Positions 9,361-35,342 are shown, counted from the first letter of the stretch. The stretch is 64,000 nt of DNA from Takakia lepidozioides (GCA_030704615.1 CM060731.1:78492001-78556000); one strand, 5' to 3'. Notes: generated by a model from the sequence alone, not told the origin. A program made the numbers and translations.

Positions 9361-9379
9361 TGACTGGGGTCAGAAAAGT

Positions 9380-10060
9380 GTCTCATTCCAAAGCTTCTCT
9401 TCATATCTGTGGTGCTATTGTAGGGTGACTTCAATGCCCAAGTGGGCAAAGGGCTCCATCAGGACGATATCATTGGGTCTTATGGTGAGGACGAGCTGAA
9501 TTCTAATGGCAGACGGTTAATTAACTGTCTGGAAGAGCTTCAGCTTTTGACCTTGATTAACAAGACAAGAGGTGACCAAGTGCAGTGGACTCGTGAGAAA
9601 TCCCAAACTGGGGAACGTTCCATTGTGGACTATATAATGGACAAAAAATTTGTTCCCCCAGTGTGCCAATGTGTTGATCGACAGAACTGATATTGGTACC
9701 TCTGACCACTTTCTGGACTGAGATCAAAAGATGTTTTCCCAAGGCCAGAGTAGAAGAGATTCTCAAGGACCTGGACCTGGATCCGCAAGTCTTGACCCTG
9801 CTGGATAAATCAGACTTAGAGGCTGTAGTGTCCAAAGCCATGTCTATTGCCATGAGATTGTCTGATGAAAATGAAGTTAGGCATAAAACTTCCCTGAACT
9901 TGTTTCTAGTCAGTGACATGGGGGAGGACATCTTGGATGACCTAAGGGTCCACCCACTCTCGGCACTAGACTGAAATTTAAACTCAGGGAAGGAAGCCTA
10001 CCTTTGAACATGAAACAGAAGCAGAGAGGAAAGGGGGAGTGCACTCTCCCAAGTGAACCT
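9380..10060 (+). mobile_element. Non-LTR retrotransposon fragments (APE endonuclease + C-terminal region)
   Basis: GDFNAQVGKG..NSNGRRL..SIVDYI..DH endonuclease motifs. 9745-10050 is an inverted homolog of 10935-11230. Confidence 0.8.
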
Positions 10061-10819
10061 GCATCATTCAGTTGGCAAGACCGTGTCTGAAAAATTGATC
10101 CATTTGAAGACACCACGGTGCAGCTGAGCACAGCCTGACATGACAACAATTAAACATCATACTGAGACAAGAGAAGCAGTCAAGGACACAGTCATGCATA
10201 TGGCAGCAAGTGATCACCCTTCAAACATGATTGAAAACATACATGAGGTCAAAGGCAATAAGAAATCAGCGAAGGGTACTGCAGCTAACAGTTGGAGTGT
10301 CTTTAAAGACAAAGGGAAGAGAAAGAAACACTTCACTGGCAATGAGGGGAGGCTGTGGAAACGCCAAGAGGATGGCACAAATGATAGAAATAACAGGGCT
10401 GGGCAAAGGATCCTGTAGGAAGAAGAAAGGGTATGTCAGCATGGAAAGGACGTGCGGCTCATTCCAACAGAAAGGGGAACATTCGTGCAGTTAAGTACAA
10501 CAACCAATTGCCCTTCAATTATGGCTGGAATTTTCCAAAAGGCGAGGGATGATAAGGATGAGATTGTACTCATAAGACGTTGTTTGCCGTAGCCTTGTGG
10601 CCATTGACCCGCGCCCAGTTTCAGTGGGAACAAAAGGAACAGGGCTGACGTTGGTAGTAAGATTTACCATCGTATAAGGAATTAATCGGGTTTTCCATAT
10701 ATCCTCTAGAAAACCCTTCACACAAGCATCAATCTGCTGTGTGTGATTTGCCCAAAAACTAGGCCTCAGGAGGGCCTGGGCTTTTGGCTCAGCCTCGAGA
10801 CTTTCAAAGTTGGTAAACA

Positions 10820-13200: not shown

Positions 13201-13721
13201 CGTTCAGGTTCTGTACACTTAGGGGCATCTTGTTCCCTCTGGCTGTTTGGATTCAATAAGGATGAGAATAAGGCCTGATACAGTGAGTACAACCAGTTGT
13301 GTCACGCCATCATTATAGGAGAAGAAAATAGGCCTAATGTGCTCATTCCTCTGATGATTGGGAATCTTGATGCCCCAGTCCTCCTTTCATTGCTGCACAA
13401 CAACCACCACCACACCCGCATATCATCAACCGATCAGCCCAGGCTGCCCCCACATTCCCGCGCACTTACTTCATCCCCTTCGATTCCTGGCCTCTACATA
13501 CATCACAACCCAAACCTTCTCCCATCAGTGCCCCACCACATTCTGGTGCCCTCCCATTGTCCTACCATGCCTGTGGAGAGGAAGGGGAGACGAGAGGAGG
13601 AAAAAAGAAGCCTCGGAAGGGAAGGCGAACACGGAGAGGAGGAGAAAGAAAAGAGAAAGCCGCGGGAGGTCATGGGAGAAAGATCGTGGGCGAAAAAAAA
13701 AAAAAAAAACAAACATAAACA

Positions 13722-13792
13722 AACGACGATTCCACGATTCGATCCCGGATGCATCGCGTCGTAATCGCCATTCTTACCACTACCCTATCCCC
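13722..13792 (-). pseudogene. Degenerate tRNA-derived sequence
   Basis: Minus strand has GTAGTGGTAAG (A-box-like) and CCGGGATCGAATC (B-box-like) followed by a T-run; the acceptor stem does not pair well. Confidence 0.3.
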
Positions 13793-14405
13793 TAAAAAAC
13801 TCAACACCCCCGCCTGTAAAATTTATTTAAGGTTTTTTAAACCCCCCTCTGTATGTATAATGTTGTACATGGGGGGGTTTAAAATACCCCCTCCCTGTGC
13901 ACGCACTTGGCTGGTACATTAATGAGGAGTGTAACCCCCCGGCGTTTTAGCTTCCCTTCCTCGTAGTTTTCCACCTTCTCTGTAGGCCGAGCCTTTCCGT
14001 AGGTGAGCAAGTGTCAGTAGACACTGTGGAGTTGTAAGTGTGTGGGAGTTGTTGTTTTCTTCTTGTGTTTGGATCCCTTCCTACACCTCATGCTTGATGT
14101 GCCCATGCTAGTTTTGTGTGGTCGCTTTGATTTTATAGGTGGTTGACTCGGGCTTTAGATCGCCGATCCAACCCTAGAGCATGCTGTCGATGGTGAGGCT
14201 GGGTTGATGAGCAGTCAGACCATCTTTGTTTCTCATGTGGTGAGGTTAGAGGTGATGACAAGCCAACCATGGAGTGCCTGCGGTTGATGCAAGTGCAGAT
14301 GCAGGCTAGGTTAGGACCTAGTATTCCAAACCACTAAGCCGCATCAGGTTCTCTACCCAGTTACCTTGTGGAGAGGGGTTAGGGACATTTTCATGACCGG
14401 TTTGA

Positions 14406-17400
14406 GTGTCAGTTTGTCAACACGGGGTGCCACTAGTTGATGGGAAAAGTGCTGGTACGAGCACTAGCGATACTAGCGGGGTTACGAGACGGGTGTGCGG
14501 TTTAGGCCCCTTCACCCTCCTGTGTCTTCTACGGAAGGTTCCAATTTGGATTGTGAATCAGGAGAACTCAGCCACCTCCAGCAGAGCAGGATGACATGCA
14601 TGGTACGGCGGAGTTGCCTGCCATGGTTGCTCACACTCCATGATGGATACGAGCAAGGATTTGCGCAGGCTGCTATGGACTGGTACAACAAGCCTGGGTA
14701 GAGGCCTTCGTACCGTCAGGAGAAAGGAGAGTGCAGTGATTGCACCAGGAACCACCTTAGTTGTTGCCATTGGACACCACACCTCTTGTGTGGCATTGCC
14801 CGGATGAAGACATATGTCTTCTGGACTTGTTTGGCGGGATCAGCACTGGATTGGCTTGGCAGTATTGCAGGCAGGTGTACGAGTTCGACGTTACCTGTAT
14901 GTGGAGAGGGATGAGACTGCATGTGCTTGTCTCACTGCGCCATGTGCTCATTTAGTACCAGCAGTACGGCCCGATTTGTTGGCAGTGTCTGCAGTTCGTG
15001 GATACCAACAAGCTTTGGCCAGCAAAGTTCCACGACCGGACTTGATGCACACTGGCCATCACCCTGGCCCGAGAATCACCCATCAGTGGCACATTCTCCA
15101 AGATGGTTCTGCTGGAGATACAGCTTGATGAAGCTACAAGTGGTGCAAAATCCGCACCATCTCCCAAAACAGACCCGTCCTCGAGTCTCGCAATCCATTG
15201 CCATGCCCAACAGTGTTGCTGGATGCAGCTGCAGTGGGTCATGGGCTCATCGTCCACGGCTATGGTGGACTAACTTGATGCCACCCGCACTGCTCAAGCG
15301 TGCATTTGATGGGGGTGCAGCGGTCAGCACCCTCACAGTGGATAGCATTTTGGACACACAGGGAAGCAGTCTCAACGTGTGAGACACGATGACCGTTCCG
15401 CCTTTGGCAGTGGTCAACAGGATGGGTCACACAAGCAGCATGTCCCTACACTGCTCAGCTTCCCAGGATCCCATGCTTTTCGGGATGGTGACCTGGCCTC
15501 TTGTGGGATAGCCAGTTGCAACATTAGTGGAGCCCAATGCTGACGAGCTCGAGCGGGCGATGGTTTTTAACACAGGTCCCACCACGGCGGTGCATCTCTT
15601 TCTGAGCATCACGTCGTCAAGGTGGGGGCAAGCAATGGATCTCATTGCTTGACCTAGATTATCAGCTTGGCTATGGCTGAGCAGCGCAGAGTACGGAGTA
15701 CACTTCCCTTCATGGTCTCCCTGCTACCGAGAACGGTACAGGTAGCGAGTTGGGGCGAGCAGGTGAGGACCACGAGGTGCAGGCCGCATCCATGGCATAC
15801 GTGGGATGTGCTCGAGGTTCAGAAGGAGTTGGCAGCCAATCGGCGGTGATGGATCAGGTTGGGGATTTTTTCTCGGATTGAGGAGGTCCTCAAGGATGGG
15901 ATGATGGGGCAGGATGAGATATTGTCACTGACAGAGAAGCAATGGTCACTGCTCAAGGGTTGCAGCATAGCAACCACGGGACGCGTCTTCTACCTCTAAG
16001 CCTGTTGGACTCAAGGTTGCAGTCACGAGGACAACGGGAGCCTGATGTTGGACCTATAGTCACCGGAGGAGAGAGAGACGACGTATACGGCGGTTCTTGA
16101 GGGCTTACAGGAACTGCTTTGCCTTCAGTTTGAAGGACTTAGGAGCACTGAAGGGTCAAGAGATTCGCATTGAATTGGCTACTGACACGCCAATCTTTCG
16201 GAGACCCTATAGATACAGTGACATGGAGAGGTCCTTGATTCAGATGAGAACTCAGGACCTTTGGAGGCTGGTTTGGTGGAGCTATCTGGGGGAGAGTATG
16301 CTTCAGCCACAAGTGATGCCAGCCAAGAACGATGTCTTTGGCAATTGGACGGAGAGACGTATGTGCGGTGATTACCGGCCTGTAAATCGTCAGGACCAAG
16401 TCCGATAGGTATGCCATGCCAACACCAGAGGAGATCTTTGATGCCATTGGGCATGCCAAGGTCTTTAGCATGTTGGATTTACAATCCAGATATCACCAAT
16501 TGCCGATCAAGGAGGCAGATAAGCAAAAGACGGCATTCTGTGGGATCAATGAGCACGGGAAGTATTGCCTATACCAGTGGCGGTTCTTACCATTTGGGCT
16601 TAAGAACGCTCCGATAGAGTTTTAGAGAGTCATGGACAGGATTCTAGCAGGGGTGGAGTTTGCTCGGTGCTACATAGATGACATCATCATCTTTAGTGCT
16701 ACGGTGGGAAGAGCATGAGAGACATCTTCAGGGGGTATTTGAGCGCTTGAGGGCACACGGATTCAAGATACATCCGGGAAAGTGCAAGTTTTTCCACAAC
16801 CAGATTGAGTATCTGGGTCACATGATATATCCTGGGGATTGGGGGGCAGCTAAGGTAGAGTCCATTGCACAGGTTCCACGCCCCACGGATATGAGCCGAG
16901 TTTTGAGCTTTCATGGGGTTAGCAAACTATTATAGACGGTTTGTTAAGGGTTTAGTGCCATTGCAAAGGCTCTAACCAAGCTGACCAGGTGGACCAGGAG
17001 TGGCAGTGGGAGATGAGCAAGAACAAGCTTTTCCAAGAGCTCAAGGCGAGGTTGACCTCGGCGCCCATCTTGAGACGACCTATCAGGGGGCGTCCTTTTC
17101 AATTGCATACAAATTGGAGCATGCTGGGGCTTGGAGCGGTGCTCACACAGGTGGATGATGAGGGAAGAGAGTTCGTAGTGGCTTATGCTAGCTGCTCGAA
17201 CAACGTTGCAGAGTCTAAGTATAGCTCATATGAGGGAGAATGCTTAGCTGCAGTGTGGGCCGTGGCACACTTCAGGTGCTATCTATATGGCAATCTCTTC
17301 ACCCTTGTCACGGATCACCAACCACTCAAGTGGTTGATGGAGTCGACAAGCTTACGGGAAGCTTGCACGGTGGGCACTCATACTTCAAGAGTATGACTTT

Positions 17401-18297
17401 CAGGTGGTGCATCGATGGCATGGTGAGACGGACGAGGAGATGATGCCCGGATGGCATGCATCTGCATTTCTGTGTATCTTGGCAGCGGAAGGCCAGGTTG
17501 GACCTGCAATAGGGATGACTATAGATCAAGTGTCTGAGGACCCTGAGGCCAGCAATGAGCAAGGTGGCGCCAAAGATATACATGAGGATTCAGTTGTGTT
17601 GGACTACCTCCGCACTGGAGACACTGCAGCCACTGTGACTGCCAAGGAGAGAGATCAGATCCTACAACGAGCCAAGAGGTTCAAGTGGGAGGGGACACAC
17701 CTGCTCCGAGTGTGGGAGGATGGTCGAGTGAGGATTGTGCCTCACCCAACACAGCGGGCACGGTTAGTGCGGCATGCCCATGAGGAGTTGGGGCATTTTG
17801 GGGTGCGACGCACTCATAGTCTACTGCAGGGGCAGTATTGGTGGCGTGGTATGCACACAGAGGTGCAACAATTTGTGGGGTGCATGGTGTGTGACAGGGT
17901 GCATGCTTCATTCAATGCCCCTACTCCACAATTGCACCCTCTTCCGATCATGGGATTGGGCTACAGGTGGAGTTTTGACTTCGCAGGGCCGTTGCCACTG
18001 ACCATGCGCCACAACAAGTACGTGTTGGTGATGGTGGAGCACTTCTCCAAGTGGATTGAATTGGTTCCATTGCCTGATAAGGCTAGTGAGGGAGCTGCTA
18101 TGCATTCTTGCATTATGTGCTTAGCCGATTCGTTGGTGCCCAGCTGAGGTACTCACGGACCAAGGGAGAGAGTTCTTGGGGGAGTTTCAGGCTTTGTGTG
18201 ACAAGGCCTTGATAGACCAACGCACCACTTCTCGGGATCATCCTGAGGCCGATGGCTTGGCAGAGAGAGTTGTTCAGACAGTAAAGAAGGGTTTGCA
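14406..18297 (+). pseudogene. Gypsy copy 1 polyprotein remnant: gag N-terminus, (gag/PR deleted), C5-MTase, RT, RNase H, integrase
   Basis: ICLLDLFGGISTG, HRPRLWWTN, RMCGDYRPVN, PFGLKNAP, YIDDII, LHTNWSMLGLGAVL, HEELGHFG..CMVC, DFAGP; many indels. Confidence 0.9.
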
Positions 18298-18299
18298 AC

Positions 18300-19029
18300 G
18301 CTACATCTATGTATCACAAAAAACAATCTATATATAAATATATATATACATATAAATATTTCCTTCAAGTTCCTTCAAGTTCATCATAAGGGGGTCTCTC
18401 TTGTGACGCCGGGGAGTTGTAACCTCCACAGCCTTTAGTGCCCAGCCCCAGCCCCAGCCCAGCATCGTCGCCGTTGTTGAACCCCCCACCGTCAGGCGCC
18501 CCAAGCGACGTCTTATGTGGACCTAAACTAACCACAACACCATTGCGACCCCCCTGTGGCGACGCCGTTCGGACCCCCCGACGTCGCAACGTTGGGCGTC
18601 CCAGCGCGGGGCGCCCCAACGACGCTTTTGTGAAGTTGAGGGCCGCAAAGCCCAAAAAAAAAAAAAAAAAAAAAACTCTCACTGTGGTGATGTCGTTGCG
18701 ACCCCTGGCGTCGCAGAGGCGCTGGGGCGCCTTTAGTGACGCTTTTTGCGACACTGAGGCGTCGTTATTTTTATTTTTTATTTTACTTTACTTTTATTAT
18801 TTTATTTTTATTCCGATGCGGGGCGTCGGAAGAAAAAAAATCCGTCGCATCAAGAGCCATCTTCCTCTTCATGCCACCTTACGACGGCTGGGGGCTCGTA
18901 ATGGTGTCGCAGCGGGGGTTTGCGACGCGGGGCGTCGCAAAAAAACGTCGCGGGCTCGCGTCGCGGGCTCAGCCGGCGGGCGTGGGGGCGCGGCTGGCGT
19001 CGCAAACCCCCCCCCCATTTGCTATAGTG
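18300..19029. mobile_element. One end of a CACTA (En/Spm) element
   Basis: Terminus GCTATAGTG (reverse complement CACTATAGC) with many direct and inverted GCGACGCC subterminal repeats; opposite end not found. Confidence 0.65.
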
Positions 19030-20520
19030 CTGTGCTGAGGCTAGTGATGAACAAGTGGTTCCATATAACATGAGGATTCGGTTGTGTTGGACTACCCCCT
19101 CCGCACTGGAGACACGGCAGCTAGTGTGATTGCCAATGAGAGGGATCAGATCCTGCAACGAGCCAAGAGGTTCAAGTGGGAGGGGATACACCTGCTTCAA
19201 GTGTGGGAGGATGGTCGGGTGAGGATTGTGCCTCACCCAACACACAGCGTGCACGGTTAGTGCGGCATGCCCTGAGGAGTTGGGGCTTAATTTTTTGGAG
19301 TGCGACGCACTCATGTCTATGCAAGTCTACTGCAGGGGCAGTATTGGTGGCGTGGTATGCACACAGAGATACAACAGTTTGCGGCTAGGTGCATGGTGTG
19401 TGACAGGGTGCCGTGCTTCATTCAACGCCCCTACACCATAGTTGCATCCTTTATCCATCATGGGATTGGGCTACAGATGGAGTCTTGACTTCGCATGGCG
19501 TTTGCCAATGACGATGCTTCACCAAAGATACGTGTTGGTGATGGTAGAGCACTTCTCCAAGTGGATTGAGTTGGTTCCATTGCCTGACAAGACTAGTGAG
19601 GGGTTTGCGTGATGCATCCTGGATCGTGTGCTTAGCCGATTCGGTGCTCCAGCTGAGGTACTCACGGACCAAGGGAGAGAGTTCTTGGGGGATTTTCAGG
19701 CTTTGTGGTGATAAAGCCTGGATAGACCACCGTACCCCTTCTCGGATCATCCTTGATGCCAATGGCTTGGCAGAGACTCTCGAGTGTACGACGGTGAAGA
19801 AAGGTTTTTGCGCAGGTAATTGGCCTTGCAAAAGGGAAACCTAGGAGATTGGGATCTTCAGGTACCTTGTTACCATGGGCTACAGGTTTAGCAAGCAAGC
19901 ATCACTTGTCTCCTTATCACCATATTTCGTTCTCTTGTTGGCGAGCCGGATTTGCTGCATCTATTCGCATGATGATGCAGTAGTCCTCAACCTGATTATC
20001 CGGATAGGTGACACAAGCATGTGCCCCGAGGGCAGAGTTGGTTCAGAGAATCATGTCTATGGGCTTGAGAATCTTGCTATTGTCCCAACACCGAGACATA
20101 TTGAGGTATGCCACATACGTGGAGGGGGATATCGGCCAGGTGTTCGGCGTTTCCACCCTGGGACTATGTTGTATCTGCAACACAGCGCCTACGAACTTGG
20201 ATGTCACAGGCAGGACGGATTCTAAGGGTCAGGGAGGTGTTACCTTCAGGAGTGTTGATTCTGGAGGGTCAAGATGGCTGGTAGGAAGGACCATGTGCGT
20301 AATATGTGCCATCACCTTCCACATGTGGATAGGAGGATAGATCCCCAACCTTGTAGTGGTACCTGCAGGATTGCGTTGCATGCTATGTGGGCATGCTCGT
20401 GGTGCCGCCACTATGCTGGTGTGTGATCGATGCTCAAGAGGTTAGCACATGGGATGCTTGACACCACCTCTTGAGAGGGTTCCTGATGGAGATTGGTTAT
20501 GTCCACACTGCTTGGGATAG
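19030..20520 (+). pseudogene. Second, more decayed integrase + PHD segment of Gypsy copy 1
   Basis: Homologous to 17540-18297 and 32720-34185; ends LRCMLCGHARGAATMLVCDRCSRG*HMGCLTPPLERVPDGDWLCPHC. Confidence 0.85.
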
Positions 20521-20835
20521 TGATAGTGGATATGACTAGTGGCAGCTAATAAGACATGGGAGGCCAAGCTCATAGGGGCTTGTGGCTACCTGGACTTAGG
20601 GCACCTAAGCTCCAGCTAGGGGGGCGATTGTGATGGACTAGTGGCTGCACTAGTGGTGGCTAGTGGCAGCCTAGTGGTGGACTAGTGGCTGCACTAGTGG
20701 TGACTAGTGGCTGCCTAGTGGCAGCCTAGTGGTGCACTAGTGGTGGACTAGTGATAGACTAGTATTTGGTGTGCACATGTATTGTGTGGTTTTGGACAAC
20801 GATGTAGTTGTGTAGCGATATGTATGCGCACGACA

Positions 20836-21597: not shown

Positions 21598-24500
21598 GGT
21601 GACGGTGGGGTATTCACGGAGGAGGGGAGCGGGGGCACACGACCGGGGGGGAGCGACGGAGGGTAGTGCGGAAGGACAGCGGGGGACGAGGGGAAGCGCG
21701 AGGAGGGCAGGAGGGGAGCATGGAGGTGGGGTCAACGGCATGAGTAAAGTCATATACTTAGGAGGAAGGGCACTCTAGAAGGGGGAGGAAGATAACCCCA
21801 ACCAAATGAAGGGAGCGGGCGGGAGGAATGTAACGGAGAAGGCCAGCAACGACGTCTCATAGCAAGCAATACATGGAGGGGAGCGAAGATGTTACGGAGG
21901 ACGACCACATAAGGGCAGCGGAGAATGCAACTGACGAGGGCAGAGCCCGGTTATAAGATTCGGGAACGTGGAGTAGAACACAATGACATGAACAGAGAAG
22001 GATGGAGGAAGGAGTCCATGAATTCAAACGAACGAACAACAAAGAGGGGAGCACGGTGAGAAAACCAAAAACTTTAGGATGTTGCGGCGTTTTTGCACAA
22101 TGCCTCATCATGACATTGCGTGACAACGCCAAGACGCCCGAAAGTGGTTGTACATCACACAATAACGAAAGTGAGTCCAGGAGGGCAGATATTGAACGAA
22201 GCGCAAAACGGAATAGAACCGGCGACGAGGGGAGCACGGTGGGAAGAGCGACAACTTCCAGATCTCTTGCCGGCTGCACAATGTCTCATAATGAAAGCTC
22301 TACGAGTCTTGCTGATGTGGCAGTAGGCTCGACCTCAGGTGGAGCTTATTGTCACATCCAAAAGACCCGTAGGGCTTTTCAAACATGGTGGGACATTGTG
22401 TGCGAACGACACAGGCTAGGAAGTGCTCGAACATCACACAATAAGGAAAGGCAATATTGAATGAAGCACAATCTCACAACATTCACGTAGTAGTAGCATA
22501 GTACTAGAACGCTTCGAATGCTGGCGAGCGATGCTGCATGAAATGGGACAGGACACATTCGTTGGTGGAGAACACCCATCCGGGAACACGGGGGATTGGA
22601 GCTATGGTGCAAGAAGGCCGCCGTTGCAAGGCAGGTGAACAAAACGTACATCTATCAAAATCAACTAACCCTGCACACATATATATGGTGCGAGGCCACC
22701 CGCTCCCCTCCGGCGTCGCTCGTCGCTCCCCTCCTGCGGCGCTCCCCGCGTATGTGTCGCGTGGGCGCTCCGCTCCCTTCCGGCGCTACCACCCGCTCCC
22801 CTCGATTGGGCCACCCGCTCCTCACCCACCCCGCTCCCCGCTACCCTCCCCTGGGGGTCCCCGCTCCCCTCTGGCGCCTCTACCCGCCCCACCCTCGCGG
22901 GTGCTCCCCGCTGCCCTCCGGCTTCACTCCCCAGCCCACTCGCGAGGTCAACCAGCTCACCGCTCCCCTCTTGTGGCTCCCCGCTGCTCTTCTGCTCTAG
23001 TCCCCGCTAACCTCCGGTGAACGGTAACGATAGAGCCACATGTCTGTACAAGGACCGATGATGGTGGAACCGGGCAGAAGGGGAAGGAAGAGCGGAGACA
23101 TCACGGGGAGCGGCGGAAGAGGGCACCGGAAGCCAGGGCAGATGGGGGGGAGTGGGCCCAAGTGAAGGGGTGAGGACAACGGAGGGGAGCGATGGAGGGG
23201 GAGCAGGCAGGAAGGGCATGCCAGCGGGGAGCAGGGGGCGAATGAGGGGAGCGGGGACTTCACGGGAAGCGCGCCGGAGGGGAGCGGAAGCAGGTTGGGG
23301 GGGGGGGGGGGGGGGGGGGGGGGGTGGGGGAGCGTCGCAAGACGGGAGCAGGAGACAAAGGGCGAGAGGGGGGGGAGCGGAGCAGGAGGGGAGCGTGGGA
23401 GCGATGGTAACAGGGGAGCGGGGTAGCGATGCGTCAGGGGAGCGGGGAGAAAGACGGGGGGCGGGGACCCCTTGCCGAGGGGAGCGTGCGAGCGGCGAAG
23501 GAGGGGAGCGGGGCAGCCATGCGACAGGGGAGCAGGGAAACGTCCGGCAGCGGGGACCCCAAGTGAGGGGAGCGTGGGAGAGCCGAAGAGGGAGCATGGG
23601 AGCGGAGAAGTAGGGGAGCGTGGAGCCACGTGGGAGGGGAGCGGGGCAGCGATGGGACAGGGGAGCGGCGAGACGTCCGGCAGCGGGGAGCCCTAGCGAG
23701 GGGATCATGGAGAGGCGAAGAGGGGAGCAGGGAGCGACGTGGGAGGGGAGTGGGGAGCCGTACCGAGGGGAGCGTCGGAGCGGCAAAGAAGGGGAGCCTG
23801 GGAATGGCGAAGGAGGGAACAGGGGAGCGGCGAATGAGGGGACAGAGGGTCGACGGAGGGGAGCGACCTCGAGGGTTCCACGCGAGGGAGCGGCGGGCGG
23901 ACGAGAGCAGTGAAGAGGGGAGCGGGGGAGCGCAGTTGGACGGGCGTGGGGTCGACGAAGTGGAGTGGGGGAGCGACATCGGAGAGGACTGGGGATGGGG
24001 GAACAAGGTGCGGCGCGGGAGGAGGGGAGCACGGTGAAAAGAGTGACTACTTGAGGACCTCCTAGATTTCTTGCACAATGCCTCATCATGGCATTGCGTG
24101 AGAACTGCAAGAGGCCCGTAAGTGGTCGCATATCACACAATAACGAAAGGCAATCCACCAGGGACACGTTTGCATAGTAGTAGCATAATAGCAGAACCAT
24201 GGAATGCTTGGAATGAATCAGGATAAGGGGAACGAATCCCAAAATGACATGACAGGGAAGCATTGAGGAACGAATCCACGAACAGAAAGTCGGAGCGGAA
24301 ACGAGGGGAGCACAGTGAAAGAGCTCCAATTTATGGACGACTTGCCGTCTGTGCACAAATGTGTCATCATGAAATGAAAAGCACAACGACTCTTCCAAAC
24401 GTTACAGTAGGCTCGATATCATTTCGCATAGATGGAGAGCCTACTGCGACATCCAGAAGGAACGTAAGGCTTTTCGCACATGGGTGGACAAGTCCGCAAG

Positions 24501-25671
24501 TGATCGTAGATCACACAAACAACGAAAAGCGTTCCAACAGGGCATGCAAACTCATGGAATGCTGGCGAGCGCTGCTGCATGAAATGACACATTCCTCGTT
24601 GGAGAACAACCATCCGTGAACACCCGGGATTGGAGTGAGGGGAGCGGGGGAGCCGCTGTTGCAAGACAGCCGAACAAAGCAAACGTCTATGAAAACTGAG
24701 AAGAGCATACATGCATATATATAGAGCAGTGAACGGTGACGATACAGCCACGTGTCTCTGAAATCATCGCGGCGCAGCAGGGGTGCGGGAGGCGGAGGGG
24801 ACCGGGACACGGGGAGCGCGCCGAAGGGGTGCGAGGAGAGGCACCGGAGGGGAGCAGAGAGCGCCCAGTCGAGGGGAGAGGGGAGCGGCCCTTCAGAGGA
24901 GCGGGGGGGAGCGCCACACGTGGGGAGCGGGGACTCGCACCGAAGGGGACCGCCACGCGAGGGGAGCGGGGAGCGACACGCGAGGGATGCGGGAGCGCCA
25001 CCAGAGGCACGCGAGGGGGACGGTAGCGGCGCCGGAGGGGAGCAGAGCGCCACGCGAGGGTGGCGGAGAGCACCGTCGGAGGGTGCGGGAAGCAGATCCG
25101 GAGGGGAGCGGGAGCGACACACGAGGGGAGTGCCACCGGAGGGGAACGGGGAGCGGCACCGGAGGGGAGCGAGGACCTGCCACGCGAGGGGAGTGGGGTG
25201 CGGCGCCAGAAGCTGGGATCGCCATGCGAGGGGAGCGGGGAATGCCATGCGAGGGGCGTGGACCGCCAAGCGAGGGGAGCTGGACCCGCGCCGGAGGGGA
25301 GCGGGAGCGCCATGCGAGGGGAGCGTGGACCCTGCGCGAGGGGAGCGGGGACCCACCGCGAGGGAACAGGGGAGCGTGGCGCGCGGGTTCGAACCGGGGA
25401 GCCGTTTGGCTGGCGTGTGCGAGGCACGACCACGGAGCTACCCGAGAGATAGTGAGGGGCCTAGCCGTCGCGACGCTTATAAGCGGGCGGGGGTGGGCAG
25501 GCATGCGGGTGCGGGCGGGGGTGCCGGGGAGCGGCGCAGCGCGGGGCGGGGGGTTTGGACGGGGGGCGGGGATTTGACGCGGCGGGCCGCGGCTCCGGGG
25601 GCAGCATGGACGTCCGGGCCGTCAGAATCGCACGCGCGCATTAAACTCCTCGGGTAAGGGTAGTCTCTTCG
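21598..25671. repeat. GC-rich repeat element with GGGGAGC(G) arrays and a duplicated ~700-bp block
   Basis: Dense GGGGAGC/GCTCCCC motifs (22700-24030, 24770-25400); 22025-22690 is homologous to 24020-24725. Right end GTAGTCTCTTCG-TA resembles the TIR of the neighbouring MITE. Confidence 0.7.
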
Positions 25672-26301
25672 TATGAATAATTAAGGGAAATTTGATAAAG
25701 ACTTTATAACCAAGGGAGGTACATTCATTGTAAGTTTTATCATGTGGGAAAGTTATAACATGGACTTACCATTTATTGGCTCGTCTTTATTCTAAAGAAG
25801 AGACTACGCATCAGTGTCAAAAATCGCTAAGCCCCTGTTCGTTTACTTAGAGGTGAGCCAACAAACGGCTAGTGGCTCCTCCTTGTGAATAGCGAAATCT
25901 ATTTTCATCTATAATAAACTTGAAAAATCATCCATTTATTTTTCATCAGTTTGTCAAGTTAAATAAGCACAGTGTGAAAACAGCTAGCATAAAACTAGTT
26001 GTTTGTATTTAACACTTGGATTTAGGTCAAGTGTTAAATCAGGTGTCAAGTTTAGTTTGACACCTGGTCCGTCTTATCTTCACGAGAGCGGCAGTCGCGT
26101 GGCTCATCTCTCTCGAGTTGAGCCTGCGCGACCGAGCTCTTGCATCGTTTAGGACTGAGTGTGCTTATGATGGGAGTATAGGTTGTTGTGGGGTGGAGTC
26201 CCCATAGCTTGGGGTGCCCCTGGCTCGACTTCTATTCTAAAGAGTGATGGTTTTGGTTGTCATGTTTTGTGTCAACAGTGTGTTCTTAGCTTTTCTTATC
26301 A

Positions 26302-26317
26302 CTCGAGAGAGATGAGC
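26302..26317 (+). promoter_or_regulatory. Self-priming primer-binding site
   Basis: CTCGAGAGAGATGAGC lies directly after the LTR end TTATCA and is the exact complement of GCTCATCTCTCTCGAG at 26102-26117; it lacks the TGG start of a tRNA PBS. Confidence 0.8.
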
Positions 26318-26687
26318 TCTATCTAGTTTTCTAGTGCTAAGCTAGATACGATGTTTTTGTTTTTAAGCACTATTATAATGTAGCTTGGTCACGGGGAGCC
26401 TGCAGTTAGACTGGTTAGGTGTGCAGAGTGGAGCAGAACAAAAAGCTTGAGATGTTGTTACGATTTTTGTCAACCTGTGTATATATCTGAGAATGGGGAT
26501 TAAGTGGCAGCAATAAAGAAAGAGGATATAATGAGGAAGCGGCCAATGGGTGACCACTGGAGCGGTGATTTCAGGGCAGGCTGTGGTAGCATTCTAGAGT
26601 TGTTCGATTAGTGATGCGGCTGCAACCAGCCACCCAGCAGCGACGCCGCATTGTTCTAGTCTTGGAGACGTAAAGAACAAACACTTC

Positions 26688-28150
26688 ATGGTGGATGCTC
26701 CGAAGGGCCATCTGGGAATTAGGGACTGCTATGCGGAGTTTGTGGACGAGAAGGGTATGTCTGTGCCTCTGAACAACGTGTACCTGCACCACTGGATCAC
26801 GTACGAGTTCTCTGTACCGAGCAATGATGTAGACACCCATAAGGAGATGCTACTGAAATCTGTGGAGAAGAAGCACTCTTCGTCTCAATCTACCTTACAC
26901 GCTGCCTCATTTGAAGGCTGCTGGCTCCGGCGTGAAGCTCTCAGCTGGACAGACATTGATGCAGTACTTTGGTGTTGGTGCGGAGACCAGGCGCACCAAG
27001 TCAACTATCCCCGCGCCCTTTGCTGAAGAGACTGCAGCTCCTTCCCTGCTTGCTGAGGGCTACAAGCCGATATGGATTCTTAATGTCCACGGCCGTGACA
27101 CACGGGGGGCCGTCAACAAACTAGGGTGCAGTGAGTGCCGGTTGCTTCTTTTCTACTCTTCTCTGAAATCTTTTACACCTGTTTTGAGGAAGTTCTCTAT
27201 AGGAAGACAATGTGTAAGGGCCTCGTCCCCACCAGTCACTAAATGCCTCACAAATGGCTGCAGCCCACAAGGTTTACCTTAGCCCATAATCCCTATTGAC
27301 CTGGCACAGAGCTATAGCGGACAACAATCCGTTGCAGGGAGCTGAGTGATAAATTATGGGCTGACGTTGGCGTCATTTTAAAAGCATGAGATGGATTCCA
27401 GTACTGCTTCTCCAGCCCCTAGCTTATCATGTGCCGTCGTGTTAACCCTTACAAAGGAGGGTAGAAAATAGAGAAGAAGCTAGGGGCCGGTGTACTGCCA
27501 TAAGGTCGACAGTGCCTGAGCGATCCAGTTGTGTTTATTATTTTACCCGAATTAGAGGCTACAACAATTTGCAGTCAGCTACTGGATTTGGCGTGTAATC
27601 TTCACAATGTGACTGTGGACTGCAAAGGAGATCCTTTAGTAGAAAGTTACCTGGGATGCCTTTAGTGCTGCACAGATGGGAAGCGCTGTGTTGTGAAGGA
27701 GGGCTTTGAAGGCGATGAGCTTGAGATGACCATCTACCTACAGTACACATGGGAATATATTACCTGGGATGAGTGCGTTGAGCCCTGTCAAAGGTGGTCA
27801 TCGGGTTCACCAAATCTATCGAGTATATTGTCGAGGGATGTGGCAACACTGATCCCGCTTCTCCGGAATGTGTAGATACACGGGAGAGGATAATAGGTGC
27901 CCCTGTTTGAAGAGATTGGTGATTTAGCCGAGGCAAATGGGAAGAAGGGAGCGGGCCTTCTGTTATGGCTGCCACCAGGAACTCCTGTTTGCAGGCATCT
28001 CTTTCACAAGCTAGTTGCCCCTTTGGAGATGATGTGATCTGCGCAGTGTCGCACTTGCATCCTTCAGCCCTGGATTGTACTATGTTTGGGGAAGATGGGC
28101 GTGTGATTTGCTACTCTCCTCCAATCTGTGGTACTGGACAGGCGGCTGAC
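26688..28150 (+). pseudogene. Stress up-regulated Nod19 (SURNod19)-family gene fragments inside Gypsy copy 2
   Basis: PKGHLGIRDCYAEFVDEKGMSVPLNNVYLHHW, QYFGVGAETRRT, WILNVHGRDTRGAVNKLGCSECR, YLQYTWEYITWD, VICAVSHLH..FGEDGRVICYSPPICGTG match the recalled family pattern; frameshifted. Confidence 0.75.
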
Positions 28151-28237
28151 ATCAGATGTATCGCATCAGCATACACCATTGCGTTGGTGAATCCAATTTG
28201 GTTGGTGCATTAATCGATGGGCACCTGGGAACGGTGA

Positions 28238-29468
28238 CTATACTGTAGCATAAGCCACTACGAACTCTCTTCCCTCATCATCCACCTGTGTGAGCACCGC
28301 TCCAAGCCCCAGCATGCTCCAATCTCTATGCAGCTGAAAAGGACGCCCCCTGATAGGTCGTCTCAAGATGGGCGCCGAGGTCAACCTCGCCTTGAGCTCT
28401 TGAAAAGCTTGTTCTTGCTCATCTTCCCACTGCCACTCCTGGTCCACCTTGGTCAGCTTGGTTAGAGCCTTTGCAATGGCATTAAATCCCTTAACAAACC
28501 GTCTGTAATAGTTTGCTAACCCCATGAAAGCTCGAACTCGGCTCACATCCGTGGGGCGTGGAACCTGTGCAATGGACTCTACCTTAGTCTGCTGTACCCC
28601 CAATCCTCCAGGATATATCATGTGACCCAGATACTCAATCTGGTTGTGGAAAAACTTGCACTTGCCCGGATGTAACTTCAATCCGTGCGTCCTCAAGCGC
28701 TCAAATACCCCCTGAAGGTGTCTCTCATGCTCCTCCACCGTAGCACTAAAGATGATGATGTCATCTATGTAGCACCGAGCAAACTCCACCCCTGCTAGAA
28801 TCCTGTCCATGACTCTTTGAAACTCAGCGGGAGCGTTTTTAAGCCCAAATGGTAAGAACCGCCACTGGTATAGGCAATCCTTCCCGTGCTCATTGATCCC
28901 CCAGAATGCCGTCTTTTGCTTATCCGCCTCCTTGATCGGCAACTGGTGATATCCGGATCGTAAATCCAACGTGCTAAAGACCTTGGAATGCCCAATGGCA
29001 TCAAAGATCTCCTCTGGTGTTGGCATGGCATACCTATCGGACTTGGTCTGACGATTTACAGGCCGGTAATCACCGCACATACGTCTCTCCGTCCAATTGC
29101 CAGACATCCTTCTTAGCTGGCATCACTGTGGCTGAAGCATACTCTCCACCAGAGAGCTCCACCAAACCTGCCTCCCAGAGATCTTGAGTCCTCATCTGAA
29201 TCAAAGACCTCTCCATGTCACTGTATCTATAGGGTCTCCGAAAGATTGGCGTGTCAGTGGCCAACTCAATACGGATCTCTTGACCCTTCAGTGCTCCCAA
29301 GTCCTTCAAACTGAAGGCAAAGCAATTCCTATAAGCCCTCAGGAACCGCCGTATACGTCGTCTCTCTCCTCCGGTGACAATGGGTCCAATGTCAGGCTCC
29401 CAATTGTCCTCCGTAACTGCAACCTTAAGTCCAGTGGGCTTAGAGGTAGAGGACCCGTCCCGTGGTTG
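28238..29468 (-). CDS. Gypsy reverse transcriptase + N-terminal RNase H (one frameshift near 29105)
   Basis: RRPYRYS, RMCGDYRPVN, LDLRSGYHQ, PFGLKNAP, YIDD, YLGH, DWSMLGLGAVL..VVAYA. Confidence 0.95.
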
Positions 29469-30850
29469 CTATGCTGCAACCTCTTGAGCAGTACCCCCTT
29501 CCTGCTCAGTCAATGACAAGGCCTCATCCTGCCCCATCATCTCATCATTGAGAACCTCCTCATCCCGAGAAGAATCCCCAACCTCATCCATTACAGCTGC
29601 CTTCGCTGCCAACTCCCTCTGAACCTCGAGCACCTCCCACATGTGCCATGGATGTCTACACCTCGTGGTCCTCACCAGCTCGCCCCCACTCGCTGCCTGT
29701 ACCGTCTCGGTAGGCAGAGAGACCGTCAAGGGAAGTGCACTCCGCACTCTACGTTGCTCAGCCATAGCCAAGCTGACAATCCAGGTCAAGCAATTGAGAT
29801 CCATTGCTTGCCCCAACACCTGACGACGTGATGCCTCAGAAAGAGAAGGCACCGCCGTGGTCCCAGTGGAAAACCCCATAGCCCGCTCTCGCTCGTCGGC
29901 ATTAGGCTCCACTAACTGCTGCAACTGAGCATCCCACAGGAGGCCAGGTCCACCATCCCGAAAAGCATGGGATCCTGGGAAGCTGAGCAGTGTAGGTAAT
30001 GCTGCTCGTGGTTGACCCACCCTGTTGACCACTGCCAAAGGCGAACGGTCATCGTGTCTCACACGTTGAGACTGCCTTCCTGTGTCCAAAATGCCATCCA
30101 CGGTGAGGTGTGCTGGCCGCTGCACCCCATCAAATGCACGCTTGAGCAGTGCGGGTGGCATCAAGTTAGTCCACCATAGTCGTGGACGATGAGCCCGTGA
30201 CCCCACTGCAGCTGCATCCAGCAACACTGCTGACCCAAGCCACGACCGGACTTGATGCACACTGGCCATCACCCTGGCCCGAGAATCACCCATCAGTGGT
30301 ACATTCTCCAAGATGTATGCTGGAGATACAGCTTGATGAAGCTGCAAGCAGCGCAAAATCCGCACCATCTCCCAAAACAGACCCGTCCTCGAGTCTCGCA
30401 ATCCATTGCCATGCCCGGCTGATGAATGCCCTTGGCAGGGCCAACCTGCCACTATCAGATCAATGGAGCCAACCTGCTCCAAATCTTGCGCCCCCAACAA
30501 GGAAATGTCTGCTGGCAAGGCTTGTTGGTATCCACGAACTGCAGACACAGGCAACAAGTCAGGGTACTGCTGTACCAATTGAGCCACATGGCGTAGTGAG
30601 ACGCGTCGTGCAATCTCATCCCTCTCCACATACAGGTAACGCCTTACCCGCACACCTGCCTGTAGCACAGCAGCCAATCCGGTGCTGATCCCGCCAAACA
30701 AGTCCAGAAGGCAAATGCCTTCATCCGGCCGCTGCCACACAAGAGGTGTGGTGTCCAATGGCGACAACTGAGGTGGCCCTGGTGCAATCACCGCACTCTC
30801 CTCCTCTCCTGACGGTACAAAAGCTTCTTCCCAAGCTTGTTGCACCCGTC
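29469..30850 (-). CDS. C5 cytosine DNA methyltransferase domain (DNMT3-like) within the retrotransposon polyprotein
   Basis: Ordered motifs I LLDLFGGISTG, II VERD, IV AGWPCQ (catalytic Cys), VI ILENV, VIII AHRPRLWWTN, IX ERERAMGF, X RRQVLGQAM in an uninterrupted frame. Confidence 0.93.
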
Positions 30851-32284
30851 CATCTGCAACTTGCCAAATCCTTGCTCGTACCCCACAACGGAGTGTGAGC
30901 AACCATGGCAGGCAACTCCGCCGTACCATGCATGTCATCCTGCTCTGCTGGAGGTGGCACATCCTCTGCATGGGCATTGCCTTCCAGCAACTCTCCAGGC
31001 CAACTAACGGCAACTGTGAAGGCGGCTAGTGTTGGCATCTTGCCCCGCTGGGCAGCTGCAATACCCCCAATGAATGTCACAGGGAGCTGTGCACGGCGAC
31101 CATCCCCTGACTGCCATCCAGGCCTGTAGGATGCTGTCTCCTCCCAGAAATCCAGGGTGAAGCCCATGGGGTATAACACTGCCCCACCAACGAGGACATC
31201 GTAAGAGACCGCGTCTGTCACAATGGCCTTGGCTCGCATCACTGAGCCATCTACAGGATGATCCGGCTGCAGTCTAATAGCCAACTGATGCCGTGTCATG
31301 CCGCGAGCCTGCTCTGATCCTCCCAGAGATGTCTGTATCTGGAAAGGACAAGGCTCCATATCCGCCTCCATGAGGCCCAAACCTGCAATAGCAGCTCTGC
31401 CCAACATCAGTGGCTGAGCTCCTGAGTCCAACAAGACCCGCAGTGGCCGGTACTTCTTGCCTGCCGGTCCACTCAAAGTGAAAATGCCTCCCTGGTTGTC
31501 TAACAAGACAACTCCAGGTGTCACCATGGCGCGCTCAATGGCTGGCCTAGCTGGCAGCTCCGTCAACCTGGCAGCTGCAACTTGCCATGGCGCAGCCGTG
31601 GCAGTCTTGACCCTCAAATCCGAGGATCCCTCTGCCACTATACCTTCCACTAACTCCGCAGAAGATGAAGTGACCTCCCCACTCTCACAGAGAGTTGCTG
31701 CTAGTCTGAACACTGCAGCTGGTCTCACCCCCGGCGTCGCAATCATGGTTGCCGAGAACAGTGGGGCTTGACACACAGAGGTGGCTGCCCCCAATAACAC
31801 ACCGGCTGCACTAGCCTTGGTAGCAGGTGTCAGTGCTGCACGTGTAGCTCTCCCCAATGGCATAGTAACCTCCGCCTCGGTAACAGTCGGGCGAGAACTA
31901 GGTGCCATGGATGGCGTTGACACTGTCTCCGCCAAGGTGAATGACTGAGGCAGCCTCGCCTGACGGCTTGCCTCCCCACGTTGTGGATCCAACTCCACCT
32001 CTGCACCTCGTGGCTCAGGAACTCGTGCTGCTCCTCGAGTCACGGCTGCAGCAGACTCCACCTGCTCTAGTGGTAGTGCTGCTCCGCACATGAATCCCAT
32101 GCCTCCCATATCTCCTCCCTCAGGAGCAGGAGGTGGACCATCCCGCCTGGGAGCCGGTACCGCCTGAGCTATAGCCATGGCAGCGAGCCTCTGCTCTAGC
32201 TGCTGAAGCCGATTGGCCATGCCTTGGTCAACACCCTGACCTCCGCGTCCTTGGCCATGTGGAGCTTGCCCTTGGCCTGCACCT
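30851..32284 (-). CDS. Gag C-terminus / linker + aspartic protease
   Basis: LRVLLDSGAQP active site and YDVLVGGAVL flap/GxD-like region; homologous to 58283-59690. Confidence 0.85.
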
Positions 32285-32288
32285 CGTC

Positions 32289-34188
32289 AATGCTGCAGAG
32301 TCTAAGTATAGCTCATATGAGGGAGAATGCTTAGCTGCAGTGTGGGCCGTGGCACACTTCAGGTGCTATTTATACGGCAATCTCTTCACCCTTGTCACGG
32401 ATCACCAACCACTCAAGTGGTTGATGGAGTCAGACAAGCTTACGGGGAAGCTTGCACGGTGGGCACTCATCCTTCAAGAGTATGACTTTCAGGTGGTGCA
32501 TCGACCGGGTTTGGTCAATCGAAATGCAGATGGGTTGAGTCGCAATCCATGCACGAGCCAGCAGGATGACACTGGAGCTCGGTGGCATGGTGAGACGGAC
32601 GAGGAGATGGTGCCCGGATAGCATGCATCTGCATTTCTGTGTATCTTGGCAGCGGAAGGCCAGGTTGGACCTACAACAGGGATGACTGTAGATCAAGTGT
32701 CTGAGGACCCTGAGGCCAGCAATGAGCAGGGTGGCGCCAAAGATATACATGAGGATTCAGTTGTGTTGGACTACCTCCGCAGTGGAGACACGGCAGCCAC
32801 TATGACTGCCCAGGAGAGGGATCGGATCCTACAACGAGCCAAGAGGTTCAGGTGGGAGGGGACACACCTGCTCCGAGTGTGGGAGAATGGTCGAGTGAGG
32901 ATTGTGCCTCACCCAACACAGCGGGCACGGTTAGTGCGGCATGCCCATGAGGAGTTGGGGCATTTTGGGGTGCGACGCACTCATAGTCTACTGCAGGGGC
33001 AGTATTGGTGGCGTGGTATGCACACAGAGGTGCAACAATTTGTGGCTAGGTGCATGGTGTGTGACAGGGTGCGTGCTTCATTCAACGCCCCTACTCCACA
33101 ATTGCACCCTCTTCCGATCATGGGATTGGGCTACATGTGGAGTCTTGACTTCGCAGGGCCGTTGCCACTGACCATGCGCCACAACAAGTACGTGTTGGTG
33201 ATGGTGGAGCACTTCTCCAAGTGGATTGAATTGGTTCCATTGCCTGATAAGGCTAGTGAGGGAGCTGCGTATGCATTCTTGGATTGTGTGCTTAGCCGAT
33301 TCGGTGCTCCAGCTGAGGTACTCACGGACCAAGGGAGAGAGTTCTTGGGGGAGTTTCAGGTTTTGTGTGACAAGACCTTGATAGACCACCGCACCACTTC
33401 TCGGGATCATCCTGAGGCCGATGGCTTGGCAGAGAGAGTTGTTCAGACAGTAAAGAGGGGTTTGCGCAAGTATGGCTTGCAGAAGGGACACCTAGGAGAT
33501 TGGGACCTTCAGTTACCCTGGCTAGCCATGGGCTACAGGTTCAGCAAGCAAGCATCACTTGCCTCCTTCTCACCATACTTTCTTCTCTTTGGCCGAGAGC
33601 CGGATTTGCCTACATCCATTCGCAGAGAAGCTGCTACAGTTCTTAACCTTGACGATCCGGACGTGTGGGCACGTGCATGTGAGCAGCGTGCAGAGTTGTT
33701 CAAGAGAGTCATGCCCATGGCTTTCGAGAACCTTGCCATTGCACAACACCGTGATACGTTGAGGTATGCTACCATACGTGGTGGGGGCTATCGTCCTGGG
33801 GTTCGGAGATTCAACCCTGGTGACTATGTCTATCTGCAGCAGACTGCTCCTACGACCCTGGATGTGACTGCAGGACGTGTTATTTTGAGGGTTCGAGAGG
33901 TTTTGCCCTCAGGCGTCTTGGTCTTGGAGGGTCGGGATGGCATAACTTGGAAGGACCATGTGCGTAATTGTGCGCCATGTCACCTTCCGAATGTCGATGA
34001 CAGGATTGACCCAAACCTGGCAGTGGTATCTGCAGGTTTGAGGTGCATGTTGTGTGGGTCTGCTAAAGGGGCAGCCACCATGCTGGTGTGTGATCGATGC
34101 TCTAGAGGTTGGCATATGGGATGCTTGACTCCACCTCTTGAGATGGTTCCGGATGGGGATTGATTATGTCCACAATACATTGGATAGT
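32289..34188 (+). CDS. RNase H C-terminus, integrase and C-terminal PHD finger (two nonsense mutations)
   Basis: YSSYEGECLA..TDHQPL..NADGLSR; HHCC (HEELGH..CMVC); DDE (LDFAG, TDQG, AER); PHD CMLC..CDRC..HMGC..(W)LCP. Confidence 0.95.
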
Positions 34189-34435
34189 GGGAGTGGATAC
34201 AACCATAGAAGGCTAACAAGCAACGCAAGGCCCAGCTACAGGATACCTTGAATACACGAAGTCCTGGCTCAAGTTCACAGATTGCAAGACGGCGACTAAC
34301 GATGGGGCTACTCTTGTACCCGGCCTCTTGGTCTATAGAGTTTGAGTACGATAGGGACAGTGATAGAGGACTTAGTACGGCTATGGCTATTACGTCTTGT
34401 AGCTATCTGGAGGTAGAGGGACCTATCCACCAGCT

Positions 34436-34445
34436 AGGGGGGCGA
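34436..34445 (+). promoter_or_regulatory. Polypurine tract
   Basis: AGGGGGGCGA followed by T-TGTG (start of B1); the same motif precedes B in copy 1 (~20618-20627). Confidence 0.8.
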
Positions 34446-35342
34446 TTGTGGTAGACTACTTTATTGTGCATATATGTGTGGTGTGGTTTGGACAGCGATG
34501 TAGTTGTGTAGCGATATGTATGCGCACGACAGCTGTCAAGTTAAATAAGCACAGTGTGAAAACAGCTAGCATAAAACTAGTTGTTTGTATTTAACACTTG
34601 GATTTAGGTCAAGTGTTAAATCAGGTGTCAAGTTTAGTTTGACACCTGGTCCGTCTTATCTTCACGAGAGCGGCAGTCGCGCGGCTCATCTCTCTCGAGT
34701 TGAGCCTGCGCGACCGAGCTCTTGCATCGTTTAGGACTGAGTGTGCTTATGATGGGAGTATAGGTTGTTGTGGGGTGGAGTCCCCATAGCTTGGGGTGCC
34801 CCTGGCTCGACTTCTATTCTAAAGAGTGATGGTTTTGGTTGTCATGTTTTGTGTCAACAGTGTGTTCTTAGCTTTTCTTATCATTGTGGTAGACTACTTT
34901 ATTGTGCATATATGTGTGGTGTGGTTTGGACAGCGATGTAGTTGTGTAGCGATATGTATGCGCACGACAAGTTGTTCAATAACATGGATATCACCTAAAA
35001 GAGGTGCATCTAGAAAAGACACATCATTGAGAGGAGGTGACATGTAGGGAAGGCACAACAGTGGCTTAGTGATTTTTGACACTAATTCGTAGTCTCTTCT
35101 TTAAGAGCCAATAAAGTAAAACAAAAATAAAACACTTAAGAATAGATAAATATAACCGGATCACTCAATAACCAGTGTGACAACCGGAACTACTGATAAT
35201 CTACGGTTCAAATGGCTTTCGCACTATTGATTACCGAGGGGTATGAGATTTTATTTTTTTTGAGAATTTAAAATTTGACTAATCACCGGCAGGTATGAAA
35301 TTTCCAAAAAATTGATGTCTGTAATGGGCAGTTATAGAATAA

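Follow-up and report, generated by a model that had tools for sequence, protein, structure and literature searches.

The stretch of Takakia lepidozioides DNA analysed here (64,000 nucleotides, GCA_030704615.1 CM060731.1:78492001-78556000, hereafter the window) holds a Gypsy-type retrotransposon insertion, at 25952-34969, which ends not where reverse transcription would end its long terminal repeat (LTR), but at a short palindrome inside that repeat. With A standing for the 3' part of the LTR and B for its 5' part, the insertion reads A1-internal-B1-GC-A2-T-B2, has the ends TGTC...GACA, and is flanked by the 4-bp target-site duplication (TSD) AGTT, a 4/4 flank match expected by chance with p ~0.005. 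An earlier reading of the sequence alone (the sequence-only reading) had proposed these coordinates, this order of parts and a TSD at these ends, and all of them hold. Based on a survey of related loci, we regard it as very probable that integration by a DDE integrase, directed to this internal attachment (att) site, is the norm of the family. With less confidence, though as the reading that we favour, we propose that the integrase would cut the LTR-internal palindrome CAYGACA-GC-TGTC and insert circularised complementary DNA (cDNA), rather than linear ends. The parts of the insertion, where PBS is the primer-binding site and RT the reverse transcriptase, are as follows.

25948-25951, plus strand: TSD AGTT, left copy
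25952-26301, plus strand: A1, the 3' part of the LTR (distal U3, R, U5); opens with att half-site TGTC and closes with TTATCA
26102-26117, plus strand: self-primer stretch of 16 nt, exact complement of the PBS; likely transcript 5' end
26302-26317, plus strand: PBS, self-priming type
26613-27800, plus strand: captured fragment of a SURNod19 host gene (Pfam PF07712 at 26613-27023, E 7e-15; 3' limit set by eye and approximate)
28246-32287, minus strand: inverted internal segment with the gag C-terminal part/protease, Dnmt3-like methyltransferase, RT and RNase H 5' part; several stops and frame breaks
28241-29122, minus strand: RT (3' part) and RNase H 5' part (Pfam)
29766-30725, minus strand: C5 cytosine methyltransferase domain (PF00145); closest solved relative DNMT3A, E 9e-11
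32289-32618, plus strand: RNase H 3' part (Pfam)
32622-34163, plus strand: DDE integrase (H2C2; rve core with D, D, E) and a PHD finger shortened by a stop
34436-34445, plus strand: polypurine tract (PPT) AGGGGGG-CGA
34447-34531, plus strand: B1, the 5' part of the LTR (U3 start); probable start 34446; ends with the CACGACA att half-site
34528-34537: intact att palindrome GACA-GC-TGTC; its spacer GC, at 34532-34533, is missing from the insertion ends
34534-34883, plus strand: A2
34884, plus strand: A2/B2 junction base T
34885-34969, plus strand: B2, ending in GACA at the right terminus
34970-34973, plus strand: TSD AGTT, right copy

The two A copies differ once in 350 bases and the two B copies are identical (85/85), so the insertion is young. 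Its palindrome, GACAGCTGTC, has a single occurrence in the 64-kb window, at 34528-34537. The T at 34884 matches the one at 34446 that separates TGTGG from the purine tract, which makes A2/B2 a clean, filler-free join of the reverse-transcription ends. The PBS is not of the tRNA type, but is exactly complementary to 26102-26117 inside A1, which points to self-priming, a mode described for Tf1/Sushi and Tcn1 (PMC6317226). The same complementarity between PBS and A, of 12-16 nt, is found in the relatives L011, L050 and L056, and in the last two the complementary stretch lies ~30 nt below TATAAA.

To establish where related insertions end, we used the best 80 of 568 confirmed stretches from a metagenome scan with an integrase alignment, that is, short-read contigs from a host other than that of the window, picked by integrase similarity. 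These loci include two large families, F0 (26 loci, integrase ~75% identical) and F1 (23 loci, ~54%). The right-end tally comprised 45 locus rows, namely 23 of F0, 19 of F1, L041, L071 and a minus-strand copy in L028; dropped from it were L063, L042, L077, L054 and L031 (contig ends early), L027 (att deletion) and L005, and the other 28 loci, with short downstream sequence, interrupted, or of small families read by eye, lay outside it. Shared flanks were merged before distinct ends were counted, and a reference B served to project the end position, the test being what comes after B.

The results were as follows. First, all 38 distinct right ends stop at the att half-site of B, 23 of them at the end of B1 (A..B form) and 15 at the end of B2 (A..BAB form); the A..B architecture, which the sequence-only reading had predicted, is thus the commonest. 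The last four bases are GACA in 33/38 ends and one-base variants of it in 5/38, and the first two flank bases are mixed (GC in 3/38). Second, the distinct whole left ends begin at A after non-B sequence in 8/8 cases, leaving out L008 and L009, in which A is truncated. Third, the terminus defined by PPT and PBS, as in a canonical LTR, was found at 0/38 right ends and 0/8 whole left ends, and canonical BA...BA copies, whose prevalence would have refuted the earlier claim, were not found. BLAST of the 80 loci and the window likewise gave no plain flank after an A end or before a B start: each B start is preceded by a PPT or an A end, and what comes after an A end is always a PBS or B. Fourth, TSDs of eight complete copies are exact over 4 bp in five (TACA, AAGG, CATA, TGTG, CCAA), match in 3/4 bases in two, and are absent from L049; at least five exact TSDs among eight are expected by chance with p ~1e-10. 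The complete A-coding-B-A-B layout is present in the window, L011, L032 and L056. In this small sample (80 loci and the window), BLAST with F0 and F1 references found neither solo A-junction-B nor solo B-GC-A, and in a viral contig set the DNA pattern and a single integrase gave 0 matches each, while the integrase alignment gave 44 pattern matches, 0 of them confirmed.

These tallies bear directly on whether the insertion might be a canonical LTR element that was rearranged once inserted, the outcome of a rare aberration, or an artefact of assembly. The focal interior is indeed rearranged, by an inversion and a captured gene, and repeats can collapse in short-read contigs such as those of the related loci. 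Nevertheless, canonical termini are missing from all 38 right and all eight left ends, in two further families, known from other data sets, the att half-sites are flanked by random-sequence TSDs, and the layout has already been printed for Klebsormidium (PMC5890265). The terminus and TSD tallies largely refute this explanation, which we consider very improbable.

The att palindrome itself is conserved. At all 21 B1/A2 junctions inspected (window, F0, F1, L003, L043, L078), the sequence is CAYGACA-NN-TGTCA, with point changes, around a 2-nt spacer, which is GC in nine, AC in seven, GT in three and AT in two, each one or two transitions off GC or GC itself. The att is thus kept in the family of the window and in F0, F1 and three small families; insertion termini are without the spacer, as had been claimed for the focal copy. 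A purine tract like the focal one precedes B in the related families, and the PPT-side start bases vary between families. That att is conserved while these starts vary indicates that the constrained motif is the internal palindrome, not the cDNA end. As a separate observation, B of F1 (for instance L045, 7160-7240) closes with two to three 15-base repeats ending in ACGACA, and A opens with short repeats; these terminal repeats resemble the subterminal binding repeats of DNA transposons, and B1 of L046 and L057 have one repeat fewer.

The enzyme that would act on this site is a DDE integrase. The focal integrase has Pfam matches to PF00665 and PF17921, and its best PDB matches are Ty3 Gag-Pol (E 3e-19) and the foamy virus integrase. 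The DDE reaction is marked by CA at the joined 3' ends, by the loss of two bases and by a 4-bp duplication (PMC11054761). Alternatively, circles might be integrated by a tyrosine recombinase that a DIRS-type element provides in trans: the split-repeat layout is typical of such elements (PMC5890265), and the recombinase could be encoded elsewhere in the host genome. However, the CA-3' ends, the 2-nt spacer loss and the varied 4-bp duplications are DDE signatures, the integrase has its triad conserved, and Pfam detected no tyrosine recombinase domain in 61 open reading frames (ORFs) of at least 95 aa from L011, L032, L050 and L056, or in the 13 ORFs scanned in the window. A recombinase in trans is therefore hardly credible to us.

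Starting from the reverse-transcription signals observed, namely a PPT, a PBS that is self-complementary, and an LTR built as B-GC-A, the route that we favour would have five steps. First, a transcript running from the R of A1 to that of A2 would yield, by standard reverse transcription, BA-internal-BA. Second, this cDNA would close to a 1-LTR circle or, via host end-joining, to a 2-LTR circle with a variable A/B junction. Third, the integrase would nick after CA on both att strands, leaving a 2-nt GC overhang, and both half-sites would be joined to target DNA 4 bp apart, such that a 1-LTR circle cut at att would give A..B and a 2-LTR circle opened at the att of its 5' LTR would give A..BAB. 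Fourth, A..B copies are predicted to be unable to replicate, because they have no downstream R, and the lineage would persist only via end-joined A..BAB copies. Fifth, and speculatively, the 5'-LTR att may be favoured because it would be double-stranded first, after the second strand transfer. Retroviral integrases are able to cut the LTR-LTR palindrome in circles (PMC1180852, PMC4372172), and the insertion products, read from sequence, argue against an integrase acting on linear cDNA ends.

The A/B junctions provide further detail. Among 17 distinct ones (the window, eight F0, eight F1), 12 have the common clean form of their family; of the deviants, two in F1 keep two extra bases, one is deleted, one in F0 keeps extra PPT bases, and one has a filler that shares 11 bases with nearby A. 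Such variation is the pattern that end-joining gives, and templated fillers are typical of polymerase-theta repair. In both families the mean distance between B1 and B2 within one copy is 0.066, versus 0.082-0.109 between loci (seven loci each), and private variants are common to both parts, which means that B2 is re-copied from the same template in each cycle.

Several observations weigh against the circle-first route. Circle opening, to begin with, is deduced wholly from insertion products. Among five left ends of copies that end in B, none has the reciprocal ABA..B form (p ~0.003 if a crude symmetric model is applied, with small n), and an extra asymmetry must hence be assumed. The A..B form can also be obtained from linear cDNA cut at both att sites, or by recombination between B1 and B2; the single junction form per family, in 12/17, could equally be explained by inheritance; and a preference for the 5' att through early double-strandedness fits a circle-free route just as well. 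Individual loci are also awkward. The right end of L005 (3361-3878) reads B-GC-A-PBS and continues with an inverted A, which spans the self-priming site to the att half-site, and then with flank; L003 reads B-att-A-PBS, in a tandem or collapsed contig; L049 is without a 4-bp TSD; and L027 is deleted across att. Moreover, the tallies rest on short-read contigs of another host. Thus, from the earlier proposal that the integrase opens circular cDNA, the use of att has been borne out, whereas the circular step is deduced, the absence of ABA..B does not favour it, and linear cDNA can give the same products. A symmetric model of the 2-LTR circle, with two equivalent att sites and ABA..B about as common as A..BAB, was considered and is unsupported (0/5).

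Regarding two of these loci, the L005 right end resembles a fold-back product of the complementarity between PBS and R, yet inserted at the att half-site, and L049 (2325, 11389) is an F1 copy lying within the LTR-like sequence of another element, whose flanks may keep a longer, decayed duplication of ~8 bases.

The circle-free route would run on linear cDNA, where the integrase pairs both halves of the 5'-LTR att and inserts the half-sites; a chromosome break would then part the free A2 end from the short B piece, and host end-joining would then give A..BAB, or annealing of B1 and B2 would give A..B. Such a route accounts for both forms and for variable junctions with filler and deletion, as well as for the lack of ABA..B, if the 5' att is ready first, and it keeps the textbook linear substrate (PMC11054761). 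In Drosophila, furthermore, 2-LTR circles make up just 2-12% of circles (PMC12951756), versus 15/38 A..BAB ends here. On the other hand, each insertion would need the repair of a chromosome break, yet TSDs matching in at least 3/4 bases are present in 7/8 complete relatives and in the focal copy, and 12/17 junctions are clean; the same unexplained preference for one att is also required. We consider this route, the main rival to the circle-first one, unlikely.

The split repeats raise another scenario, a PAT/Ngaro-like cycle in which the repeats and the A/B junction are inherited, a non-standard reverse transcription builds a circle with a single B/A junction that is the att, and the DDE enzyme serves only for the final joining. 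The layout is the same as A-coding-B-A-B (PMC5890265), one junction form dominates in each family (12/17), and the missing ABA..B is explained without added assumptions. However, the PBS lies directly after A and the PPT directly before B, which fits standard reverse transcription; the five deviant junctions vary like repair products, and B2 tracks B1 of the same copy; and this cycle alone leaves the 23/38 ends without A2-B2 unexplained. We therefore deem it improbable. Returning to the circle-first route, its broader extension would be that an old clade of LTR elements of the green lineage (charophyte algae, liverworts, mosses) has moved att from the cDNA ends into the LTR, with end-joined 2-LTR circles obligatory for competent copies and 1-LTR circles a dead end, a view for and against which we see evenly matched chances.

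With respect to known systems, the group resembles canonical Ty3/Gypsy elements in its order of protease, RT, RNase H and integrase (in the relatives), in the DDE integrase, and in a PBS after the 5' repeat and a PPT before the 3' repeat, and it shares with them and with retroviral integration the TG...CA ends, 2-nt trimming and 4-bp TSD (PMC11054761, PMC6317226). Unlike them, it has no two equal terminal LTRs, and its insertion ends differ from those defined by PPT and PBS; since no canonical terminus was found (0/38, 0/8), we do not file it as a canonical member. The Panganiban-Temin circle-junction model of 1984 was later displaced by linear precursors (PMC11054761). As in that model and in foamy virus and HIV-1, the circle, although deduced in our case, would hold two att half-sites that abut to form a palindrome (PMC11054761, PMC1180852, PMC4372172). 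The retroviral palindrome, however, is the LTR-LTR junction and yields an ordinary provirus, by a route that is minor or disputed (PMC11054761, PMC1180852, PMC4372172), whereas in the focal group the palindrome is fixed inside each LTR, the product is permuted, and the use of att is the rule.

Elements of the PAT/TOC1/Ngaro type probably have a circular intermediate, and the tyrosine-recombinase elements PAT, Ngaro and DIRS are not known to have a true TSD. In bacteria, the DDE enzymes of IS3/IS911 and IS30 act on circles in which the inverted ends abut across a short spacer; these circles come from DNA excision or copy-out, not from reverse transcription. The focal group is like PAT/TOC1/Ngaro in its A-internal-B-A-B split repeats (layout in PMC5890265), and unlike them in its DDE integrase, its true 4-bp TSDs of varied sequence (AGTT, TACA, AAGG, CATA, TGTG, CCAA), its PBS and PPT, and its common A..B form; with the IS3/IS911 and IS30 circles it shares abutted half-sites with a short spacer. 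By analogy, the group may work like IS3-type or Panganiban-Temin circle integration while descending from Ty3/Gypsy.

The nearest published relative is KnitGypsy-Dnmt3 of Klebsormidium nitens (de Mendoza et al. 2018), for which the legend of Fig. 4c gives a DIRS repeat structure, defined as A-coding-B-A-B, with Gypsy domains (PMC5890265). By that description it shares with the focal group the Gypsy domain set, a Dnmt3-like domain in Pol and the A-coding-B-A-B layout; termini, TSD, att palindrome, A..B form, self-priming and mechanism are absent from the portions of PMC5890265 available to us, and the available text of later papers from the same group (PMC11244446, PMC12344493) adds nothing on its termini or mechanism. 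The statement that no precedent is known, made in the sequence-only reading, thus fails for the layout and stands for TSD, att and mechanism. Integration at an LTR-internal att is undescribed in the full-text literature searched, outside whose scope lay subscription journals, Repbase, theses and the supplement of PMC9940879. One printed line covers the group and its layout; its TSD and attachment site, the A..B form and the pathway that they imply appear undescribed. A further candidate for the same att is Gypsy-7a_cRei of Chlamydomonas, with a PHD finger, 'LTR subparts' and a left LTR eight bases short, which is active in laboratory strains (PMC9940879, Fig. 6A legend).

K. nitens integrases are 50-55% identical to the focal one, about as close as F1. 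In a quick tree with long-branch outgroups, three of them, not necessarily the published copies, fall in an open fork with F1 and the window clade, and the nearest rows to the focal integrase are liverwort proteins; no K. nitens name occurs among 58 long matches to the methyltransferase (DNMT) domain. Calypogeia, Riccia, Marchantia, Sphagnum, Klebsormidium and chlorophytes supply the named relatives. Liverwort and moss elements widely carry the Dnmt3-like retrotransposon methyltransferase that was described from Klebsormidium. In Marchantia polymorpha, many annotated genes show 62-75% identity to the DNMT domain of the window (rows P0121-P0135), such that some annotated bryophyte DNMT genes are probably transposon ORFs.

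These findings matter because LTR circles are widely seen as dead ends or sinks (PMC11054761, PMC12951756), and in Drosophila they are regarded as sequestered from integration (PMC12951756), while their role as true integration precursors has been debated since 1984. Here a group with a DDE integrase leaves the product expected from cutting at an internal att, in many copies and in more than one host. Even if the linear route were true, integrase specificity would be uncoupled from the reverse-transcription ends, and host end-joining would be part of the replication cycle; if the old-clade view were true, this would be a natural, genome-scale version of the circle-precursor model proposed, and then abandoned, for retroviruses. 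The close relatives annotated in Marchantia polymorpha, with a DNMT domain up to 75% identical, make the question directly testable. Since the insertion ends lie off the PPT/PBS ends and no paired equal LTRs exist, detectors that depend on paired LTRs with TG...CA and TSD (as in PMC6317226) would overlook these elements or mis-bound them, and a very abundant repeat class of bryophyte-type genomes would so escape, or be mis-bounded by, standard LTR finders. An integrase reading one short palindrome is also of interest as a tool.

Unmentioned in the sequence-only reading is that the interior of the focal copy is rearranged, with the SURNod19 fragment and an inversion at 28246-32287, a segment whose orientation is the opposite of that in another copy within the window. 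Contigs of all four short-read runs compared contain the uninverted order (joint 28246/32288, opposite strands). In the run X1, the contig depth of the captured-gene part is ~450-500, versus ~70 for unique flank, which implies several near-identical copies, and pol is far deeper. The focal copy belongs to a small number of recent, non-autonomous derivatives of a family that is very abundant, and it was likely mobilised in trans. In the full-length relatives L001, L011, L032, L041, L049, L050 and L056, gag/protease, DNMT, RT, RNase H and integrase lie on one strand; DNMT is matched in 30/80 metagenome loci, and the protease match is weak (Pfam E 0.002 in L050, with none in the window ORFs).

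Assembly support for the focal locus comes from short-read contigs, which join B2 to the right flank with 0 differences, over a B-side overlap of 25-27 letters that is below the 31-letter threshold. One contig each in X1 and X3, from one sample, goes from 25951 to the right flank, a weak hint of an empty site. Contigs with 2-6 differences, that is, other copies, span the A-T-B junction in X1, X2 and X5, and other copies meet unrelated sequence at 34531, 34534 and 34969. Summed contig depths were left out of the counting of junction types.

The window probably also holds an older relative of the focal element:

6543-20835, plus strand: probable second, older sister-family element, A..B form; TGTCAAG start after CCCT, CACGACA end before CCCC (3/4)

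Its two ends probably belong to one A..B element, because they are colinear with a minus-strand copy at 64000-58290. The B part of this older copy (20628-20760) is enlarged by short tandem repeats based on CTAGTGG, and its methyltransferase has a second small inversion (14958-15217). Inside it, at 9409-12605, lie nested inverted repeats (9747-10043/10935-11232 and 9409-9496/12521-12605, 91-94% alike), probably a separate insertion or a fold-back. Elsewhere in the window, G+C-rich arrays of ~22-base units occupy 21600-25600, and tandem repeats of 10, 41 and 51 bases occupy 61270-62280, in the 5' region of the minus-strand sister element.

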